64,000 nucleotides of DNA from the IMG/VR virus record IMGVR_UViG_3300035704_000387, positions 4,134 through 68,133 of that record. One strand, given 5' to 3'. Both the position numbers and the translations under genes were made by a program. The stretch is from a virus. Below the pieces are notes generated by a model, which was given only the letters and a program-made list of their open reading frames with translations, did not search any database and had not been told where the DNA came from. Shown here one piece after another: positions 22,466-26,170 of the stretch; positions within the stretch are counted from its first letter, which is position 1, and the number at the start of each line of letters is the position of its first letter.

Positions 22466-22705
22466 CTAGACCACCGCCCCACTCGCCTCGACCCGCCACG
22501 CTTCGACGGTCAGGTGCGTTTCAGGATCCTCATGCACATACCGGTGGCCACCCAGGACGGAGAGAGCCGCCATCCGGGCCTCCATGGGGAGGATGCCGGT
22601 CTCCGATTCGATCCGGGGCGCCAGTTGCTCGACGGGGACCTCGAAGCGGTCGATCAACTCCTCGGTCGAGTAGGGGTTGGAGACCTCGACGATGTAGACG
22701 CTCAT
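22466..22705 (-). CDS. Hypothetical protein
   Basis: ATGA-coupled to the RHH gene. Confidence 0.6.
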   Translation of the reverse strand: MSVYIVEVSNPYSTEELIDRFEVPVEQLAPRIESETGILPMEARMAALSVLGGHRYVHEDPETHLTVEAWRVEASGAVV

Positions 22706-22875
22706 GCTGCGGCCCGATCGGTTGCGGCCGCCTCGCCATTACTGCCCAGCCAGGCACGGAGGGCCATGCGGATCTCGGCTGCTCGCGACCGTTCCGACTC
22801 GGCGCGTTTCTCGTCAAGCCGGCGGAGCGTCTCCTTGTCCAGCTCGGTGGCTACGGGCGTGAGCTTCTTTGCCAT
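22702..22875 (-). CDS. 57-aa ribbon-helix-helix protein in the Cro position (not in the ORF track)
   Basis: MAKKLTPVATELDKETLRRLDEKRAESERSRAAEIRMALRAWL; first gene of the early operon, divergent from the repressor. Confidence 0.75.
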   Translation of the reverse strand: MAKKLTPVATELDKETLRRLDEKRAESERSRAAEIRMALRAWLGSNGEAAATDRAAA

Positions 22876-22920
22876 GCCGACAAGATAGCAGATTATCTTC
22901 GGTTGTCAAAGATTATCTGC
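22876..22920 (-). promoter_or_regulatory. Early promoter with two operators
   Basis: TTGACA (22909-22904), 16-bp spacer, TGcTATCTT (22887-22882), ATG 6 nt later (leaderless); AGATTATCT at 22890-22898 and 22910-22918. Confidence 0.75.
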
Positions 22921-22988
22921 GATTTCTTGTTTCGCTCACCGGACAAGCCGCGCGCAGCGGTCGAAATCTCCGTACAGTCCTGCGACGA

Positions 22989-23333
22989 ATGGCGGCGGAG
23001 AAGGAACCGGTCCGAGAGCTGGGCCGGCGGGTGGCGATGGCTCGGGCCTACCGGGGCCTCCACCAGACGGCGGTAGCCGAGAGATTCGGGATCGAACCGC
23101 AGACGCTGGGGCGCTACGAAAAGGGCGACATCCCCGAACATCGAATGCCGTGGCTCACCGACCGCTCGATCGAAGTGTTTGAACTCCCGGAGGAGTTCTT
23201 CGACCCGGAGGTCGACTTCAGCCGGCTAGCGCTGATGGTCGAGACGTGGCGACAGGCGAAGCGACTGCCCGATCCTGCTGAGCTGCCCCATCTGATCGAC
23301 CAAGTTCTGAATGAAATGCCGCGAGGCGGATAA
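22989..23333 (+). CDS. XRE-family immunity repressor (CI-like)
   Basis: LGRRVAMARAYRGLHQTAVAERFGIEPQTLGRYEKG HTH; divergent from the early operon; TACAGT at 22973. Confidence 0.8.
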   Translation: MAAEKEPVRELGRRVAMARAYRGLHQTAVAERFGIEPQTLGRYEKGDIPEHRMPWLTDRSIEVFELPEEFFDPEVDFSRLALMVETWRQAKRLPDPAELPHLIDQVLNEMPRGG

Positions 23334-23573
23334 GCCCGGGTCGAAGTTTCGACCGGCTCGGGAGCCGGTTCACGTGCCGGAGGGCGACAGCTTCAATCTC
23401 GGCGATCGCTTCAGCCTCCAGCCGGCGTAAGTCCGCCGCGTGATCCATACCTTCATGCGCTGCCGACCCGTCAGACACCTTCGTTGCAGCTCCCTTTAAC
23501 GGTCAATGGTTTGGCCCCGGGGTTATCCCGGATCGCCAAACCGCTTGTCAAGCCTTGGGCGCTGCAGATTTGT

Positions 23574-24170
23574 CTAGCGGGGTGGCGGCGTCTTGAGGAT
23601 CGCAAGGCACACGGACATATGGACGGTGTCGCCGTTCCCTCGAGCCCGTCGCTCTGCTGAGCGCTTCAGGATCTCGACAACCTCGTTCTGCTCAATCCGA
23701 TCGAAAAGCTCGATGAGTTCGTCGCAACCCTGGCTGTCGACCTTTACCGGCGTCCGATCGATAAGGAATTGGTTGTCCGTTCCAACCGTGCCGGCCTTCA
23801 CCGAGCGCGTGATGTCGTCGAAGAGTGCCTGGGTGTTCTGAGCGAAGAGGTACTCAGCCAAGCGCGGGTTCTCGTCAACCAGCGCGGTCCAGTCACTGTC
23901 ATCAATCAGGACAGGGCGGGTCGAACGGTAGAAGTGCTCGACCGTCCCGCGAACCGGCCGAGTTTCGACCAACTCGGCGCAGCCGAGCCTCACCAGCTCC
24001 TTGGTGTGGTGCGACACATTGGAGAGATTGGCGTCAAGCGTCTCGGCGAGTTCTTTTGGACTCGCCACCCGCTCGTAGAGGAGCAGCCAGATTTCGTGCC
24101 GCAGCTCGTGGACCATCGCTTTTAGGTGGTTCTGCCGGGCCGTCTGCCCCGAAAACGACTTGGTCGCCAT
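23574..24170 (-). CDS. ArsR-like winged-HTH regulator with about 110-aa C-terminal domain
   Basis: KAMVHELRHEIW...SPKELAETL..NLSNVSHH...VRGTVEHFYRS; AAGGAG RBS. Confidence 0.85.
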   Translation of the reverse strand: MATKSFSGQTARQNHLKAMVHELRHEIWLLLYERVASPKELAETLDANLSNVSHHTKELVRLGCAELVETRPVRGTVEHFYRSTRPVLIDDSDWTALVDENPRLAEYLFAQNTQALFDDITRSVKAGTVGTDNQFLIDRTPVKVDSQGCDELIELFDRIEQNEVVEILKRSAERRARGNGDTVHMSVCLAILKTPPPR

Positions 24171-24320
24171 TTCCTCTCCTTATCCAGAAGTGTTGAGCAG
24201 TAGAGGGTAGCCCTTCGCCGCAAACTCGTTTTTTGATCGCTACAGAACGATGTAGCGCCGGAACGACCTGCACCATCTTTACGGTCGCCTCCTCAGCTAT
24301 TTGCGGAGGGAGGTGAAGCC

Positions 24321-24380
24321 ATGCTGGCGATCAAGCTGGAGCGTCCGATGCCCGTCGCGCTCAAATCGAAGGGGGCATAG
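24321..24380 (+). CDS. 19-aa micropeptide MLAIKLERPMPVALKSKGA (not in the ORF track)
   Basis: Very strong RBS GGAGGGAGGTGA 4 nt upstream of the ATG; followed by a stem-loop. Confidence 0.6.
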   Translation: MLAIKLERPMPVALKSKGA

Positions 24381-24393
24381 CCCGCGCCTAATC

Positions 24394-24444
24394 GCGGTGC
24401 CCCTGGCTAGTCAGTTTTACCTGGGAGCCCGTCAGGGGCACCGC
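24394..24444 (+). terminator. Stem-loop after the micropeptide
   Basis: GCGGTGCCCCTG (24394-24405) pairs with CAGGGGCACCGC (24433-24444). Confidence 0.55.
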
Positions 24445-24504
24445 TCGAAGCCGCACCCCCTTGGCTGTAGACGCCCCAGGCACCCTCGGCGAGACACTGC
24501 CTAC

Positions 24505-24690
24505 ATGCTCGGGGCAAGGGAACCCCGGCGGCTCAGCATCGACCCGGCAAGCGTGAGCGTCTGTCGCGGCCTGCTGATGCTCGGATCTCGCCACCACTTC
24601 ATCCCGGAGACGGAGCGGGAGGTCGAAGCGCTCTCCGGCTGGGAGGTCGTGCGGCGGGTCGAGGTGATCGTCCTGCGCCGGCGACGCTGA
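24505..24690 (+). CDS. Possible small hypothetical protein
   Basis: 61-aa ORF from ATG 24505; weak support. Confidence 0.3.
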   Translation: MLGAREPRRLSIDPASVSVCRGLLMLGSRHHFIPETEREVEALSGWEVVRRVEVIVLRRRR

Positions 24691-24843
24691 GCCCTTCGGA
24701 GATTTGCGTCGACCGAACCCGGGAGGGAAAATCGCCATGGCGGCGGCCCGGCTGAACCCCCGGCGCTGTAGCGAATGCCGGGTCGTCCCACCCCCCCGGA
24801 CGACGAGCAGGAATCCTGTCGTTCCTATAGCTTGCGGCCCAGC

Positions 24844-25107
24844 GTGGCGAAGGCAGAAGCGCCAGAACAGCACGACAAACGGGCTGAAAAGCCAGAGGCA
24901 AAGTGCCCCCGTCACCCCGACAAGGACTACCGGAAGCTGGTCGACAAGGCGTGGAAGGCCGGCTGGTGGTGCGAGGAACGTCGCAAGTACATCTACTGCC
25001 GGCCACCAGATAAGAAGCTGGACATCGTGAAGATCCCGATGACGCCGAATCAACGAACGATCCACAACGTCAAACGAAACCTGCGAGCGTCTGGTTTAGA
25101 CGTGTAA
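24844..25107 (+). CDS. HicA-like small basic protein (putative toxin)
   Basis: KDYRKLVDKAWKAGW...IPMTP..RTIHNVKRNLRASG pattern; canonical His not evident. Confidence 0.5.
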   Translation: MAKAEAPEQHDKRAEKPEAKCPRHPDKDYRKLVDKAWKAGWWCEERRKYIYCRPPDKKLDIVKIPMTPNQRTIHNVKRNLRASGLDV

Positions 25108-25123: not shown

Positions 25124-25492
25124 ATGGCAGCAGAATCGAAAATCGGGAAGGAACGTTGCTCTGAGGCCAACGTCCTGATCGAGTTCCAAATGCTCGAGCC
25201 CATGTCGGAGGAGGTGCTCGACGCGAACTCCGATGACGTGCTCGAGGCCGTCGAATCCGGCGCTTCCGATGTCGCACTCGGGGCCTGCATCGCCCTCAAC
25301 CCGCACGAGAATTCGATCAAGCTGCGGTTCGATGTCCTCGCCAAGAACGACGCCGAGGTCCACAAAAAGATCGCGAAAGTCATCACGGTGATCTTGCGCG
25401 ACACGGACTTCGAGTTGCACGTCAACCGCTCGAGCGTCCAGGCTCAGCAAGACGGCGAGCGGGCACAGACCGGCGAATTCGCCGCAGCGTAG
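25124..25492 (+). CDS. Acidic partner protein (putative antitoxin)
   Basis: GAGGAGG RBS; directly after the HicA-like gene. Confidence 0.5.
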   Translation: MAAESKIGKERCSEANVLIEFQMLEPMSEEVLDANSDDVLEAVESGASDVALGACIALNPHENSIKLRFDVLAKNDAEVHKKIAKVITVILRDTDFELHVNRSSVQAQQDGERAQTGEFAAA

Positions 25493-25513: not shown

Positions 25514-25756
25514 TCAGTCCTTCTCGCCGATCTCCTCGGCCAGGGCGAAGACGTCCACCAGGCTGGTCTCGAGCGCCGCGGCGATCTTGGCGACCGAGAT
25601 AATCGTCGGGTTCCGATAGCCCCGCTCCATCTGCGTGACCCAGGTGATGTGGACGCCGGCTTTCTCTGCGACTGCTTCCTGGGTCAGTCCCTTCTGTTCC
25701 CGCATCTGCTTCAAGGCAGCGCCTACAGCTTTGGGGAGATCGTCGGGCGAGAGCAT
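25514..25756 (-). CDS. XRE HTH regulator (controller-protein-like)
   Basis: LKQMREQKGLTQEAVAEKAGVHITWVTQMERGYRNPTI. Confidence 0.85.
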   Translation of the reverse strand: MLSPDDLPKAVGAALKQMREQKGLTQEAVAEKAGVHITWVTQMERGYRNPTIISVAKIAAALETSLVDVFALAEEIGEKD

Positions 25757-25834: not shown

Positions 25835-26170
25835 TTGAGCGCCGAGACGATGCCTGACCGAGACGACGCCGACGGTTCGGCGGCAGTAGCCGCCATCTGC
25901 AAGGCCCTCTCTCATCCTCTGCGAGTCGAGTTCATCGAGGCGCTCCAGCGCGACGACGGCACCCTCTCGGCATCGAAATTCGCCAACGCCAAGGACGCCG
26001 ACCTTTCCCGGGTCGCGTATCACGCCGTTCGCCTGAAGGAGGCCGGTGTGCTCGAGGTCGCTAGCGAGCGGAAGGTCCGAGGGGCGACAGAACGGTCTTA
26101 CTCGCTCACCGGGACCAATGCCGAGCTCGCCGTTAAGCTGATCGCGATGGCTCGGAACGGATGCGGCTGA
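25835..26170 (+). CDS. ArsR-like winged-HTH regulator (DNA-binding domain only)
   Basis: KALSHPLRVEFIEAL...LSRVAYHAVRLKEAGVL...VRGATERSY. Confidence 0.85.
   Translation: MSAETMPDRDDADGSAAVAAICKALSHPLRVEFIEALQRDDGTLSASKFANAKDADLSRVAYHAVRLKEAGVLEVASERKVRGATERSYSLTGTNAELAVKLIAMARNGCG

Follow-up and report, generated by a model that had tools for sequence, protein, structure and literature searches.

Does the short open reading frame (ORF) that diverges from a winged-helix regulator gene in this viral DNA encode a peptide that belongs with the regulator, and on what would such a peptide act? The window, i.e. the whole stretch of 64,000 nucleotides that was analysed, had been taken in the first-pass annotation to contain a candidate peptide-signalling module, in which an ArsR-like regulator is divergent from a tiny ORF with a very strong ribosome-binding site. 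Everything observed there was confirmed, and both the ORF and the site are among the features of the locus:

23574..24170, (-) strand: 198-aa regulator with an ArsR-type winged helix (~residues 1-83), a C-terminal helical domain and a tail
24171..24320, no strand: shared intergenic region of 150 bp, which should hold both divergent promoters
24238..24257, no strand: perfect inverted repeat CGCTACA-N6-TGTAGCG, candidate operator
24260..24286, (+) strand: GGAAC-N17-CGGTC, putative ECF-sigma-like -35/-10 pair upstream of the micro-ORF
24305..24316, (+) strand: Shine-Dalgarno site GGAGGGAGGTGA, read directly, 4 nt upstream of the ATG
24321..24380, (+) strand: micro-ORF MLAIKLERPMPVALKSKGA followed by TAG, 19 codons, read directly, member of a family of 92 peptides
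24394..24444, (+) strand: GC-rich hairpin, starting 14 nt past the stop codon of the micro-ORF

An ArsR-type regulator with an additional helical domain

In Pfam the 198-aa regulator is matched weakly by HTH_20 and HTH_5 (E 2.7e-4, 21.3 bits vs a cut-off of 27). PF12840 is present in 27 of 41 homologues, and any existing names among these 41 are ArsR-family or Solirubrobacterales. The closest homologues have 72% and 61% identity; the DNA comparison described below was carried out without the loci of these two. A search of the regulator-family profile against PDB sequences matched ArsR-family chains (best 2jsc, E 2.1e-7) and covered 4g6q across both domains (profile positions 8-155). By profile, the regulator family belongs to the ArsR/SmtB-type winged-helix proteins.

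The AlphaFold2 model (pLDDT 87.5) consists of a winged helix at residues 1-83 and helices at 91-125 and 146-176, followed by a tail. The extra domain of ~110 aa that had been ascribed to the protein is therefore real. The top five rows of a Foldseek search with this model are 4g6q, 2cwe, 1uly and 2p4w (E 2.7e-5 to 5e-4, probability 1.00, identity 15-21%, TM-scores 0.34-0.46), and SmtB, CzrA, NolR and HlyU are also among the matches. Since the TM-scores are low, these matches indicate a likeness of build and do not prove a common function. The build itself, a winged helix followed by long C-terminal helices within ~180-200 aa, is that of Kfla_6221 (4G6Q), PH1932 (1ULY/2CWE) and the Phr heat-shock regulator (2P4W). 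We know of no function for Kfla_6221 and PH1932, and of no partner peptide described for any of the three.

A TPR-type receptor had been reported as absent, and all searches agree with this: Pfam detected no TPR family in the regulator (E up to 0.1), in the model the winged helix is succeeded by a pair of long helices and a tail, without trace of a TPR domain, and no TPR proteins are among the Foldseek matches listed. NCBIfam metalloregulator models remained far under their cut-off (26.4 vs 55 bits), and PHROG families gave no match to the regulator. Fused double-length forms of ~420 aa exist in the family, which suggests that the regulator is dimeric.

Recurrence of the regulator and micro-ORF pair

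The micro-ORF has a GC content of 0.60/0.40/0.85 at the three codon positions, which is the pattern of real genes in the window. Only nine ORFs of 17-22 codons with such a Shine-Dalgarno site are found in the 64-kb window on both strands; three of these nine have a hairpin at or below -30 kcal/mol, and the micro-ORF at 24321-24380 is the only one of these that is intergenic with a coding-like composition. Such a feature greatly exceeds what chance would produce. The 19-residue peptide has no evident signal peptide. Rfam gave no meaningful match over 23300-24800 (two chance-level matches, far under gathering scores), and NCBIfam holds no family for five peptides of the family with 20-22 aa.

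Loci of the regulator family were gathered with alignments of closer homologues. They were scanned without a peptide pattern for a Shine-Dalgarno site, an ORF of 17-22 codons, a hairpin with a dG of at most -28 kcal/mol and a GC3 of at least 0.6, limited to the divergent strand within 450 bp of the regulator. Pair counts were taken from these scans and not from a regex search, because the latter presupposed the Pro...Lys pattern. For genomic and viral-contig loci, 49 of 85 distinct regulator genes were matched, of which 47 were kept (L068 and L038 were dropped as unlike the rest). A profile search added four divergent cases, giving 51/85, and found seven further regulators downstream of a peptide gene. 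Metagenome loci were counted only with at least 400 bp upstream; here 50 of 61 independent loci matched and 48 were kept, L144 and L145 being dropped. In the reverse test, 26 of the 29 peptide-profile matches in five whole genomes (E up to 0.13) adjoin a regulator. The check suggested in the first-pass annotation, namely a micro-ORF beside homologous regulators, had a positive outcome, and the coupling of peptide gene and regulator holds in both directions of the test.

Nearly all micro-ORFs of the family have GG(A/G)GGTGA 4-7 nt before the start codon. Approximately 95 independent ones share length, Shine-Dalgarno site, hairpin, the Lys described below and synonymous variation at conserved residues. 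The genes downstream vary between loci and are often convergent, such that the micro-ORF is a stand-alone gene and not the leader of an operon. A divergent peptide gene is absent at ~40% of the regulators in the examined loci. In other Actinomycetota it was found at none of 20 loci, five strong homologues included; the regulator is therefore able to function in the absence of a peptide. No conserved exporter, transporter or peptidase lies near the module across the loci compared.

Five Solirubrobacterales genomes (1.9-2.9 Mb) contain 7-15 full-length regulators each. Their regulator matches amount to 13-24 per genome, with 56 near full length over the five genomes, and the whole regulator family comprises 1113 clusters at E up to 1e-30. 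The module family is large and clade-restricted to Solirubrobacterales, and about half of the regulators have a peptide gene. That a coupled pair of regulator and micro-ORF genes exists we regard as close to certain. With ~100 recurrences in soil Solirubrobacterales the pair looks like an undescribed regulator-and-peptide module, the working of which is unproven; nothing on such a module was found in the full-text literature outside subscription journals.

Selection on the peptide and divergence of its regulator

All 92 distinct peptides carry a Lys at position -3, and a central Pro is kept in more than 90% of them. The conserved features are a hydrophobic residue and the Pro in the middle, Ser/Ala followed by Ile/Val, Lys(-3) and a small last residue. 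A core IKL.RPMPVAL, which had been expected from the single peptide of the window, is not the conserved part. The peptides are mostly without Cys and His, and the one from the related phage contig L046 is without the Pro that is conserved elsewhere. In 64 distinct 19-codon ORFs, Pro is encoded by four codons (35/10/8/8) and Ser by at least five (TCN and AGC), and the pooled dN/dS from 83 non-independent pairs is 0.44. As judged from these codon comparisons, the peptide gene is under selection at the amino-acid level.

Paralogous peptides of one genome are different at the majority of positions, in contrast to the similar orthologues from different samples. In close paralogues the DNA-binding half of the regulator is conserved, whereas the C-terminal half and the peptide diverge (identities of 0.99, 0.62 and 0.74, respectively, in one example). 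The partial Mantel correlation of the peptide was r = 0.31 with the C-terminal half and 0.19 with the N-terminal half, both significant but with the shared descent of neighbouring genes ignored.

D145 and R174 are invariant in the C-terminal domain of the regulator. They are equally invariant in homologues without a detected peptide gene (6/6 and 37/38), and are therefore not peptide-specific contacts. A pairing of Lys(-3) and the C-terminal carboxylate with these two residues was rejected for this reason. The possibility that the peptide imitates the C-terminal tail of the regulator itself was also abandoned, the resemblance by eye being loose and the spacing different.

Control region and hairpin

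As first described, the 150 bp between the two genes are richer in AT than their surroundings (GC 0.54 vs 0.646 for the window). Blocks of the intergenic sequence are conserved between the window, L046 and L058. The repeat CGCTACA-N6-TGTAGCG is the sole inverted repeat detected in 24150-24330 and lies mid-way in the intergenic region; GTGGA-N6-TCCAC-like repeats occur at other loci of the family. About 12 other loci among 47 share the words and the spacing of GGAAC-N17-CGGTC, and both are conserved in L046. By its likeness to the ECF consensus, this element may be an ECF promoter. A promoter scan of the 150 bp found no match to the sigma-70 consensus. Among sequencing runs, none of RNA was found to contain this DNA, and one DNA run, possibly that of the source sample, does.

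The stem-loop that had been noted downstream of the tiny ORF corresponds to the hairpin at 24394-24444. It has 14 paired positions, a dG of -38.2 kcal/mol and a z of -3.66, and none of 200 shuffles folds as well. It is probably a terminator without a U-tract. Of 94 distinct tails of micro-ORFs, 85 contain a comparable hairpin with at least 9 paired positions, and the stem sequence is conserved between the window, L046 and L058.

Phage context

An HTH_31 repressor-like gene ends at 23333. Its distance of 240 bp from the stop codon of the regulator agrees with the approximate value given before. L046 has the same gene order, with the module beside the immunity switch, such that the location first noticed in the window is found a second time. 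A small gene 3' of the hairpin on the same strand is conserved in the window and in L046 (61% identity), and this shared downstream gene is limited to the two phage contigs. The temperate phage has a single copy of the module, and its location next to the immunity switch is conserved. Copies are found in prophages as well. Most members of the family as a whole are chromosomal, and each genome has many of them; the phage copy is therefore a captured member of a host family and not an invention of the phage.

Possible action of the peptide and comparison with known systems

The module is self-contained and consists of two genes, one for the ArsR-type regulator and a divergent monocistronic one for a peptide of 18-19 residues, which has a very strong ribosome-binding site and presumably its own terminator hairpin. 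We propose that a dimer of the regulator would bind the intergenic palindrome and control both promoters. The peptide in turn would influence its cognate regulator, either as a ligand or as an antagonist, by way of the rapidly evolving C-terminal domain, and each pair would thereby get a private feedback loop. Such a cognate feedback pair, with a peptide that acts on its regulator, is a plausible reading to which we give slightly less than an even chance.

To our knowledge, almost all known pairs of peptide and regulator come from Bacillota, and all of them have receptors of the TPR type. In the streptococcal Rgg/SHP and ComR/ComS systems a peptide gene of ~20 codons, usually missed by annotation, lies beside the regulator gene and is often divergent from it. 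Several paralogous pairs occur per genome, the peptides lack a classical signal peptide and their C-terminal end is active. The module described here likewise has a short peptide gene adjoining the regulator gene, as is typical of RRNPP systems, no classical signal peptide and several paralogous pairs. The RRNPP receptors of Rgg/ComR contain an XRE-type HTH and a TPR-like domain; here, in contrast, the TPR-type peptide-binding domain is absent and an ArsR-type winged helix precedes a pair of long helices with a tail. The SHP peptides have a strongly hydrophobic character and are exported through PptAB, whereas no transporter is linked to the present module and the host phylum differs. With the arbitrium system AimR/AimP of Bacillus phages the module has in common a phage-borne regulator with a short peptide gene near lysogeny control. 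AimR is a TPR protein and AimP a signal-peptide-bearing precursor that is cut to 6 residues. Unlike arbitrium, the family here is mainly chromosomal and present in many copies.

In the SmtB/SmtA pair of Synechococcus an ArsR-family repressor is divergent from a small protein gene under its control. SmtA is a 56-aa Cys-rich metallothionein, in contrast to the peptides of 18-19 aa, mostly without Cys and His, found here. In SinI/SinR and PatS/HetR a small antagonist encoded near the regulator could bind it and block DNA binding. By analogy, such an action would fit an intracellular peptide without export, although sequence and fold are unrelated to those of the present pair.

Use of the peptide for cell-to-cell signalling appears unlikely to us, and a role of the module in the lysis-lysogeny choice of the phage still less likely. 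A TPR-less receptor family, in which ArsR-type receptors would read cognate peptides as private channels of the host and phages would have captured them for the choice between lysogeny and lysis, is a similarly speculative proposal that we would not expect to hold. If it were true, there would be at least 10 private channels per Solirubrobacterales genome, with the peptide or its C-terminal half as the signal, and a phage could listen to, or speak in, the peptide language of its host.

Instead of acting on its regulator, the peptide may be a regulated effector with another target (an enzyme, a membrane component or the ribosome), while the regulator senses a different signal. This is possible, though we consider it rather doubtful. 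Divergent genes around a shared control region are the classic layout of a repressor and its target, and a Shine-Dalgarno site of such strength points to abundant output after derepression. The invariant C-terminal residues are moreover kept in peptide-less homologues, which are also found in other Actinomycetota, such that the C-terminal domain has a peptide-independent function. A common target, however, predicts similar paralogous peptides, while in fact paralogues differ and orthologues are alike. The divergence of the peptide also tracks the C-terminal half slightly better than the DNA-binding half, and the rationale for at least 10 separately regulated effectors in a 2.5-Mb genome is not obvious. 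The peptide could have no function at all if the micro-ORF had arisen by chance within a promoter region and the regulator alone were functional. While 19 codons by themselves carry little statistical weight, ~95 independent occurrences with common features stand against a background of 3 comparable ORFs in 128 kb (the window, both strands). The recurrence scans, this background, the synonymous variation and the reverse test refute the chance-ORF reading, to which we assign practically no probability.

Two further explanations draw on the neighbouring genes, and both are very improbable in our view. As a leader peptide, the micro-ORF would together with the hairpin set the read-through into a 61-aa gene and a HicA/HicB-like pair. 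This would suit the mere 14 nt between stop codon and hairpin, the conserved hairpin sequence and the small same-strand gene past the hairpin that the window and L046 share (61% identity). The chromosomal loci differ from an attenuator in that their downstream genes share no relation and frequently lie on the opposite strand; no runs of regulatory codons were seen, and the pattern of Pro, Ser and Lys(-3) is kept whatever gene lies downstream. The module could alternatively be selfish or defensive, of the toxin-antitoxin type, with a harmful peptide that is neutralised or repressed by the DNA-binding protein. Each genome has numerous paralogous copies, prophages carry copies, and in the window and several other loci the copies adjoin HicAB-, VapBC- or MazF-like genes. 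The only PADLOC matches, however, are to Csa3 at the level of the winged helix of the regulator (E 1.7e-5). The peptide is not strongly hydrophobic, as a type I toxin would be, and is too short for the known type II toxins, and a divergent rather than co-transcribed layout is atypical of such modules.

For the reading preferred here, in which the peptide acts on its own regulator, the module has a receptor of another fold, and its hosts belong to an order of soil actinobacteria that is little studied and for the most part uncultured. The ~100 documented pairs and up to 15 regulators per 2-3 Mb genome represent a large regulatory share. The module family has no name in Pfam, NCBIfam, PHROGs or Rfam, and its peptide genes are overlooked by standard annotation. 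Since the module amounts to a single regulator, a control region of 150 bp and a synthesisable peptide, the key questions are tractable in vitro and heterologously. The conserved place beside the immunity switch in two related temperate phages provides a handle on a peptide-coupled life-cycle decision outside Bacillota.

In three loci the stem sequence of the hairpin is better conserved than the peptide. This hints at a role at the RNA or DNA level, which is not explained by a feedback pair of peptide and regulator.

The regulator-peptide gene pair in the window

The 198-aa ArsR-like winged-helix regulator and the divergent 19-codon micro-ORF form a real and conserved gene pair, here situated 240 bp to the right of a repressor-like gene in a prophage. 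The elements described in the first-pass annotation (the 198-aa ORF, the intergenic region, the Shine-Dalgarno site, the micro-ORF and the hairpin) were all recovered at their positions. The relevant features are:

592-1917: integrase (PHROG match)
22702-22875 (-): ribbon-helix-helix gene (RHH_1, E 9.6e-6), first gene of the leftward early operon
22869-23333 (+): ORF of the HTH_31 repressor-like gene, probable ATG read at 22989, facing the ribbon-helix-helix gene
23574-24170 (-): regulator ORF, 198 aa
24260-24286: GGAAC-N17-CGGTC pair, upstream of the micro-ORF
24305-24316 (+): Shine-Dalgarno site GGAGGGAGGTGA
24321-24380 (+): 19-codon micro-ORF
24394-24444: hairpin 3' of the micro-ORF
24505-24690 (+): 61-aa ORF just 3' of the hairpin, very high GC3
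24775-25107 (+): 110-aa ORF, PADLOC HicA-like model (E 4e-5, residues 49-104), weakly phrog_2089
25124-25492 (+): 122-aa ORF, weak DUF7355 match only
25514-25756 (-): 80-aa XRE-type gene (HTH_3, E 1.7e-15)
25835-26170 (+): 111-aa winged-helix-only ArsR-like gene, resembling the N-terminal half of the regulator (E 6.9e-6)

The 150-bp intergenic region shared by the two genes is AT-richer than its surroundings, as had been claimed (GC 0.54 vs 0.646 for the window). The micro-ORF has a codon-position GC of 0.60/0.40/0.85, which is the pattern of real genes in this DNA. The hairpin behind it has a folding energy of -38.2 kcal/mol (z -3.66), and none of 200 shuffled sequences folded as well. As a control for chance we collected from both strands of the whole window all ORFs of 17-22 codons preceded by a similar Shine-Dalgarno site. 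Nine such ORFs were found, three of them followed by a strong hairpin; only the micro-ORF at 24321-24380 was both intergenic and coding-like in composition.

Within the provirus record containing the window (68 kb, GC 65%), PHROG matches place RecT-like, exonuclease and methyltransferase genes in a leftward early operon and group the genes for terminase, portal, sheath, tape measure and baseplate in a block of their own; tRNA genes were not present in the window. The region 22702-23333 is a probable immunity switch: the 113-bp gap between the ribbon-helix-helix and HTH_31 genes contains AGATTATCT twice (22890-22898 and 22910-22918). The 110-aa and 122-aa ORFs are likely a prophage-borne toxin-antitoxin pair, in which the latter may be the HicB-like partner of the former. 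At another regulator locus, L007, a HicB/HicA-looking pair (judged by eye) also lies 3' of the micro-ORF.

A viral contig related to the prophage, L046, has the same gene order: early operon, Cro-like, CI-like, regulator, micro-ORF with hairpin, small gene, XRE-type and winged-helix-only ArsR-like gene. The two last genes adjoin in the window and both are kept in L046. The regulators of the two phages are 42% identical. The 61-aa ORF belongs to no Pfam, NCBIfam or PADLOC family; its counterpart in L046 (1677-1922, (-)) occupies the corresponding position, has 81 aa and is 61% identical (E 8e-22). In the window, L046 and a chromosomal locus, L058, the control region and the hairpin stem can be aligned well, while the peptides differ greatly.

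Recurrence of the pairing

The first-pass annotation had predicted that homologous regulators would be accompanied by a similar micro-ORF upstream on the opposite strand. Loci were taken from species-representative genomes and viral contigs (45), from five whole genomes (30) and from metagenome contigs (80). The scan was blind to the peptide sequence: it demanded a Shine-Dalgarno site, 17-22 codons on the divergent strand at most 450 bp from the regulator, a hairpin of -28 kcal/mol or lower within 80 nt and a GC3 of at least 0.6. It was positive at 49 of 85 distinct full-length regulator genes and at 50 of the 61 metagenome loci with at least 400 bp upstream (19 loci with too short upstream sequence were skipped), which bears out the prediction. 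In each set two loci were set aside: L068 and L038, with peptides unlike all others, among the former and L144 and L145 among the latter. This left 38 regulators without a family-type match (36 misses, and L068 and L038); a profile search on these yielded four further divergent pairs as well as seven regulators downstream of a peptide gene, with the peptide between two regulators. These additional pairs are weaker evidence, since part of the training set for the profile came from neighbouring loci. At the seven loci (L023, L030, L032, L071, L076, L018 and L066) the second paralogue is on the same strand, 3' of the hairpin.

In the reverse test a 19-position peptide profile was searched against the six frames of the five whole genomes, with 38 matches at E ≤10 and 29 at E ≤0.13. 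Of the latter, 26 had a regulator match no more than about 450 bp away, divergent where strands were compared; one non-paired match lay at a contig end, and several pairs were absent from the training set. The peptide gene thus hardly occurs without the regulator.

Peptide family and downstream hairpin

The 95 micro-ORFs encode 92 distinct peptides of 17-20, mostly 18 or 19, residues. Lysine is third from the C-terminal end in all 92, and more than 90% have a central proline, preceded by a hydrophobic residue and followed by Ser/Ala at position +3 and Ile/Val at +4. The C-terminal residue is small: of the first 47 peptides, 45 end in G, S, A or N. Among the 64 distinct 19-codon ORFs all four proline codons are used for the conserved prolines (35/10/8/8), and the conserved serines are encoded by both TCN and AGC. 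Such mixed synonymous codons show that it is the amino acid, and not the RNA, that is under selection. The pooled dN/dS was 0.44 (83 pairs of at least 75% nucleotide identity), a rough value from non-independent pairs. Peptides diverge more rapidly than their regulators: for regulators 84% identical, peptide identity fell to as low as 50%. The group closest to the window peptide is chromosomal ('ML(I)S.ER.MP.SAKGKGS').

The micro-ORF is a stand-alone gene, not an operon leader. The genes 3' of it vary by locus and are often convergent; among them are methyltransferases, membrane proteins, two-component systems, toxin-antitoxin pairs and a uracil-DNA-glycosylase-like gene. In 85 of 94 distinct tails a hairpin with 9 or more paired positions and no U-tract was found 0-60 nt downstream. 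In the window, L046 and L058 it is kept in sequence and not only in shape, with the stem CGCGGTGCCC and the loop word CCTGGG identical despite differing peptides. CTGG occurs in or at the loop of 27 of the 85 hairpins, many of them orthologues; shuffling gave an expectation of 8.4, and the count for the reverse-complement word was 7. The conservation of stem and CTGG may hint at a role beyond termination.

The regulator

The regulator is one of the ArsR-like winged-helix proteins that carry a C-terminal helical domain, a class not known to have a partner peptide. Pfam gave sub-threshold matches to HTH_20 and HTH_5. A search of 5.8 billion proteins returned 41 homologues of 176-240 aa; those with a source name are ArsR-family regulators of Solirubrobacterales. 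The AlphaFold2 model (39 aligned sequences, pLDDT 87.5) has a winged helix (1-83), helices at 91-125 and 146-176 and an extended tail. Foldseek against the PDB ranked highest Kfla_6221 of Kribbella (4G6Q, function unknown), PH1932 (1ULY/2CWE) and Phr (2P4W), the Pyrococcus heat-shock regulator, and the sequence-profile search agreed. Classical ArsR/SmtB proteins ranked lower and covered the N-terminal half only.

At E ≤1e-30 the family comprises 1113 clusters (50% identity); in the ESM Atlas its clusters are named only 'hypothetical' or 'ArsR family'. Many of the 1113 clusters consist of proteins of about 420 aa in which two full regulator copies follow each other in tandem (e.g. P0042-P0050), and open frames of this build occur in the genomes (G004:C1:379327-380505 and G005:C1:1740863-1742077); this would make a covalent dimer.

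Possible mechanism and relation to known systems

In the proposed mechanism the regulator would bind an inverted repeat in the intergenic region and control both genes. The sole perfect inverted repeat in the 150 bp is CGCTACA-N6-TGTAGCG. It is abutted by the GGAAC-N17-CGGTC pair, which recurs in about 12 other loci and resembles ECF-sigma promoters. GTGGA-N6-TCCAC-like repeats occupy the same place in other loci; in one group GGAAC lies inside a GTGGAAC...TCCAC inverted repeat.

Each peptide would further be recognised by the C-terminal domain of its own regulator. Close paralogues are much more alike in the DNA-binding half than in the C-terminal half (e.g. 0.99 vs 0.62). Paralogues of the same genome have very different peptides, and orthologues across samples nearly the same one. 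Peptide distance had a partial correlation of 0.31 with the C-terminal and 0.19 with the N-terminal half, both significant and uncorrected for shared descent. This divergence pattern, from which shared descent was not removed, fits cognate recognition. However, two invariant residues of the C-terminal domain, D145 and R174, are equally invariant in homologues without a peptide gene, which counts against a simple contact model. No transporter was linked to the module among the neighbour genes of its loci, and none of the listed RNA data sets contained this DNA.

The module is similar to Rgg/SHP in layout and to arbitrium in its phage setting. It differs from RRNPP systems, of which the TPR receptor is the defining feature: as already noted in the first pass, a TPR domain is absent from the regulator (Pfam, AlphaFold2 model and Foldseek matches). 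Neither the peptide nor the pair has an entry in Pfam, NCBIfam, PHROGs, PADLOC or Rfam. Full-text searches, in the literature that they covered, yielded no description of this module; the pair is, as far as seen, undescribed. Peptide signalling by the module is plausible but unproven, and a link to lysis-lysogeny is speculative.

Distribution across genomes

The five genomes (1.9-2.9 Mb) have 13-24 regulator-profile matches each. Of these, 56 were counted as near full length (7-15 in each genome); the remainder consists of winged-helix-only genes, which are common in these genomes. In an even sample of the phylum (301 genomes) 44 had a match at E ≤1e-10 and only six one better than 1e-40. At 20 loci of this sample (5 strong and 15 weak matches) no family-type micro-ORF was found, such that the pairing is a trait of one clade within a wider regulator family. 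Near weak ArsR-like matches of other Actinomycetota, the loci L174 (~1948, (+)) and L176 (~1429, (-)) have short ORFs with the common motif YLTDLPELP, which may be parts of longer genes.
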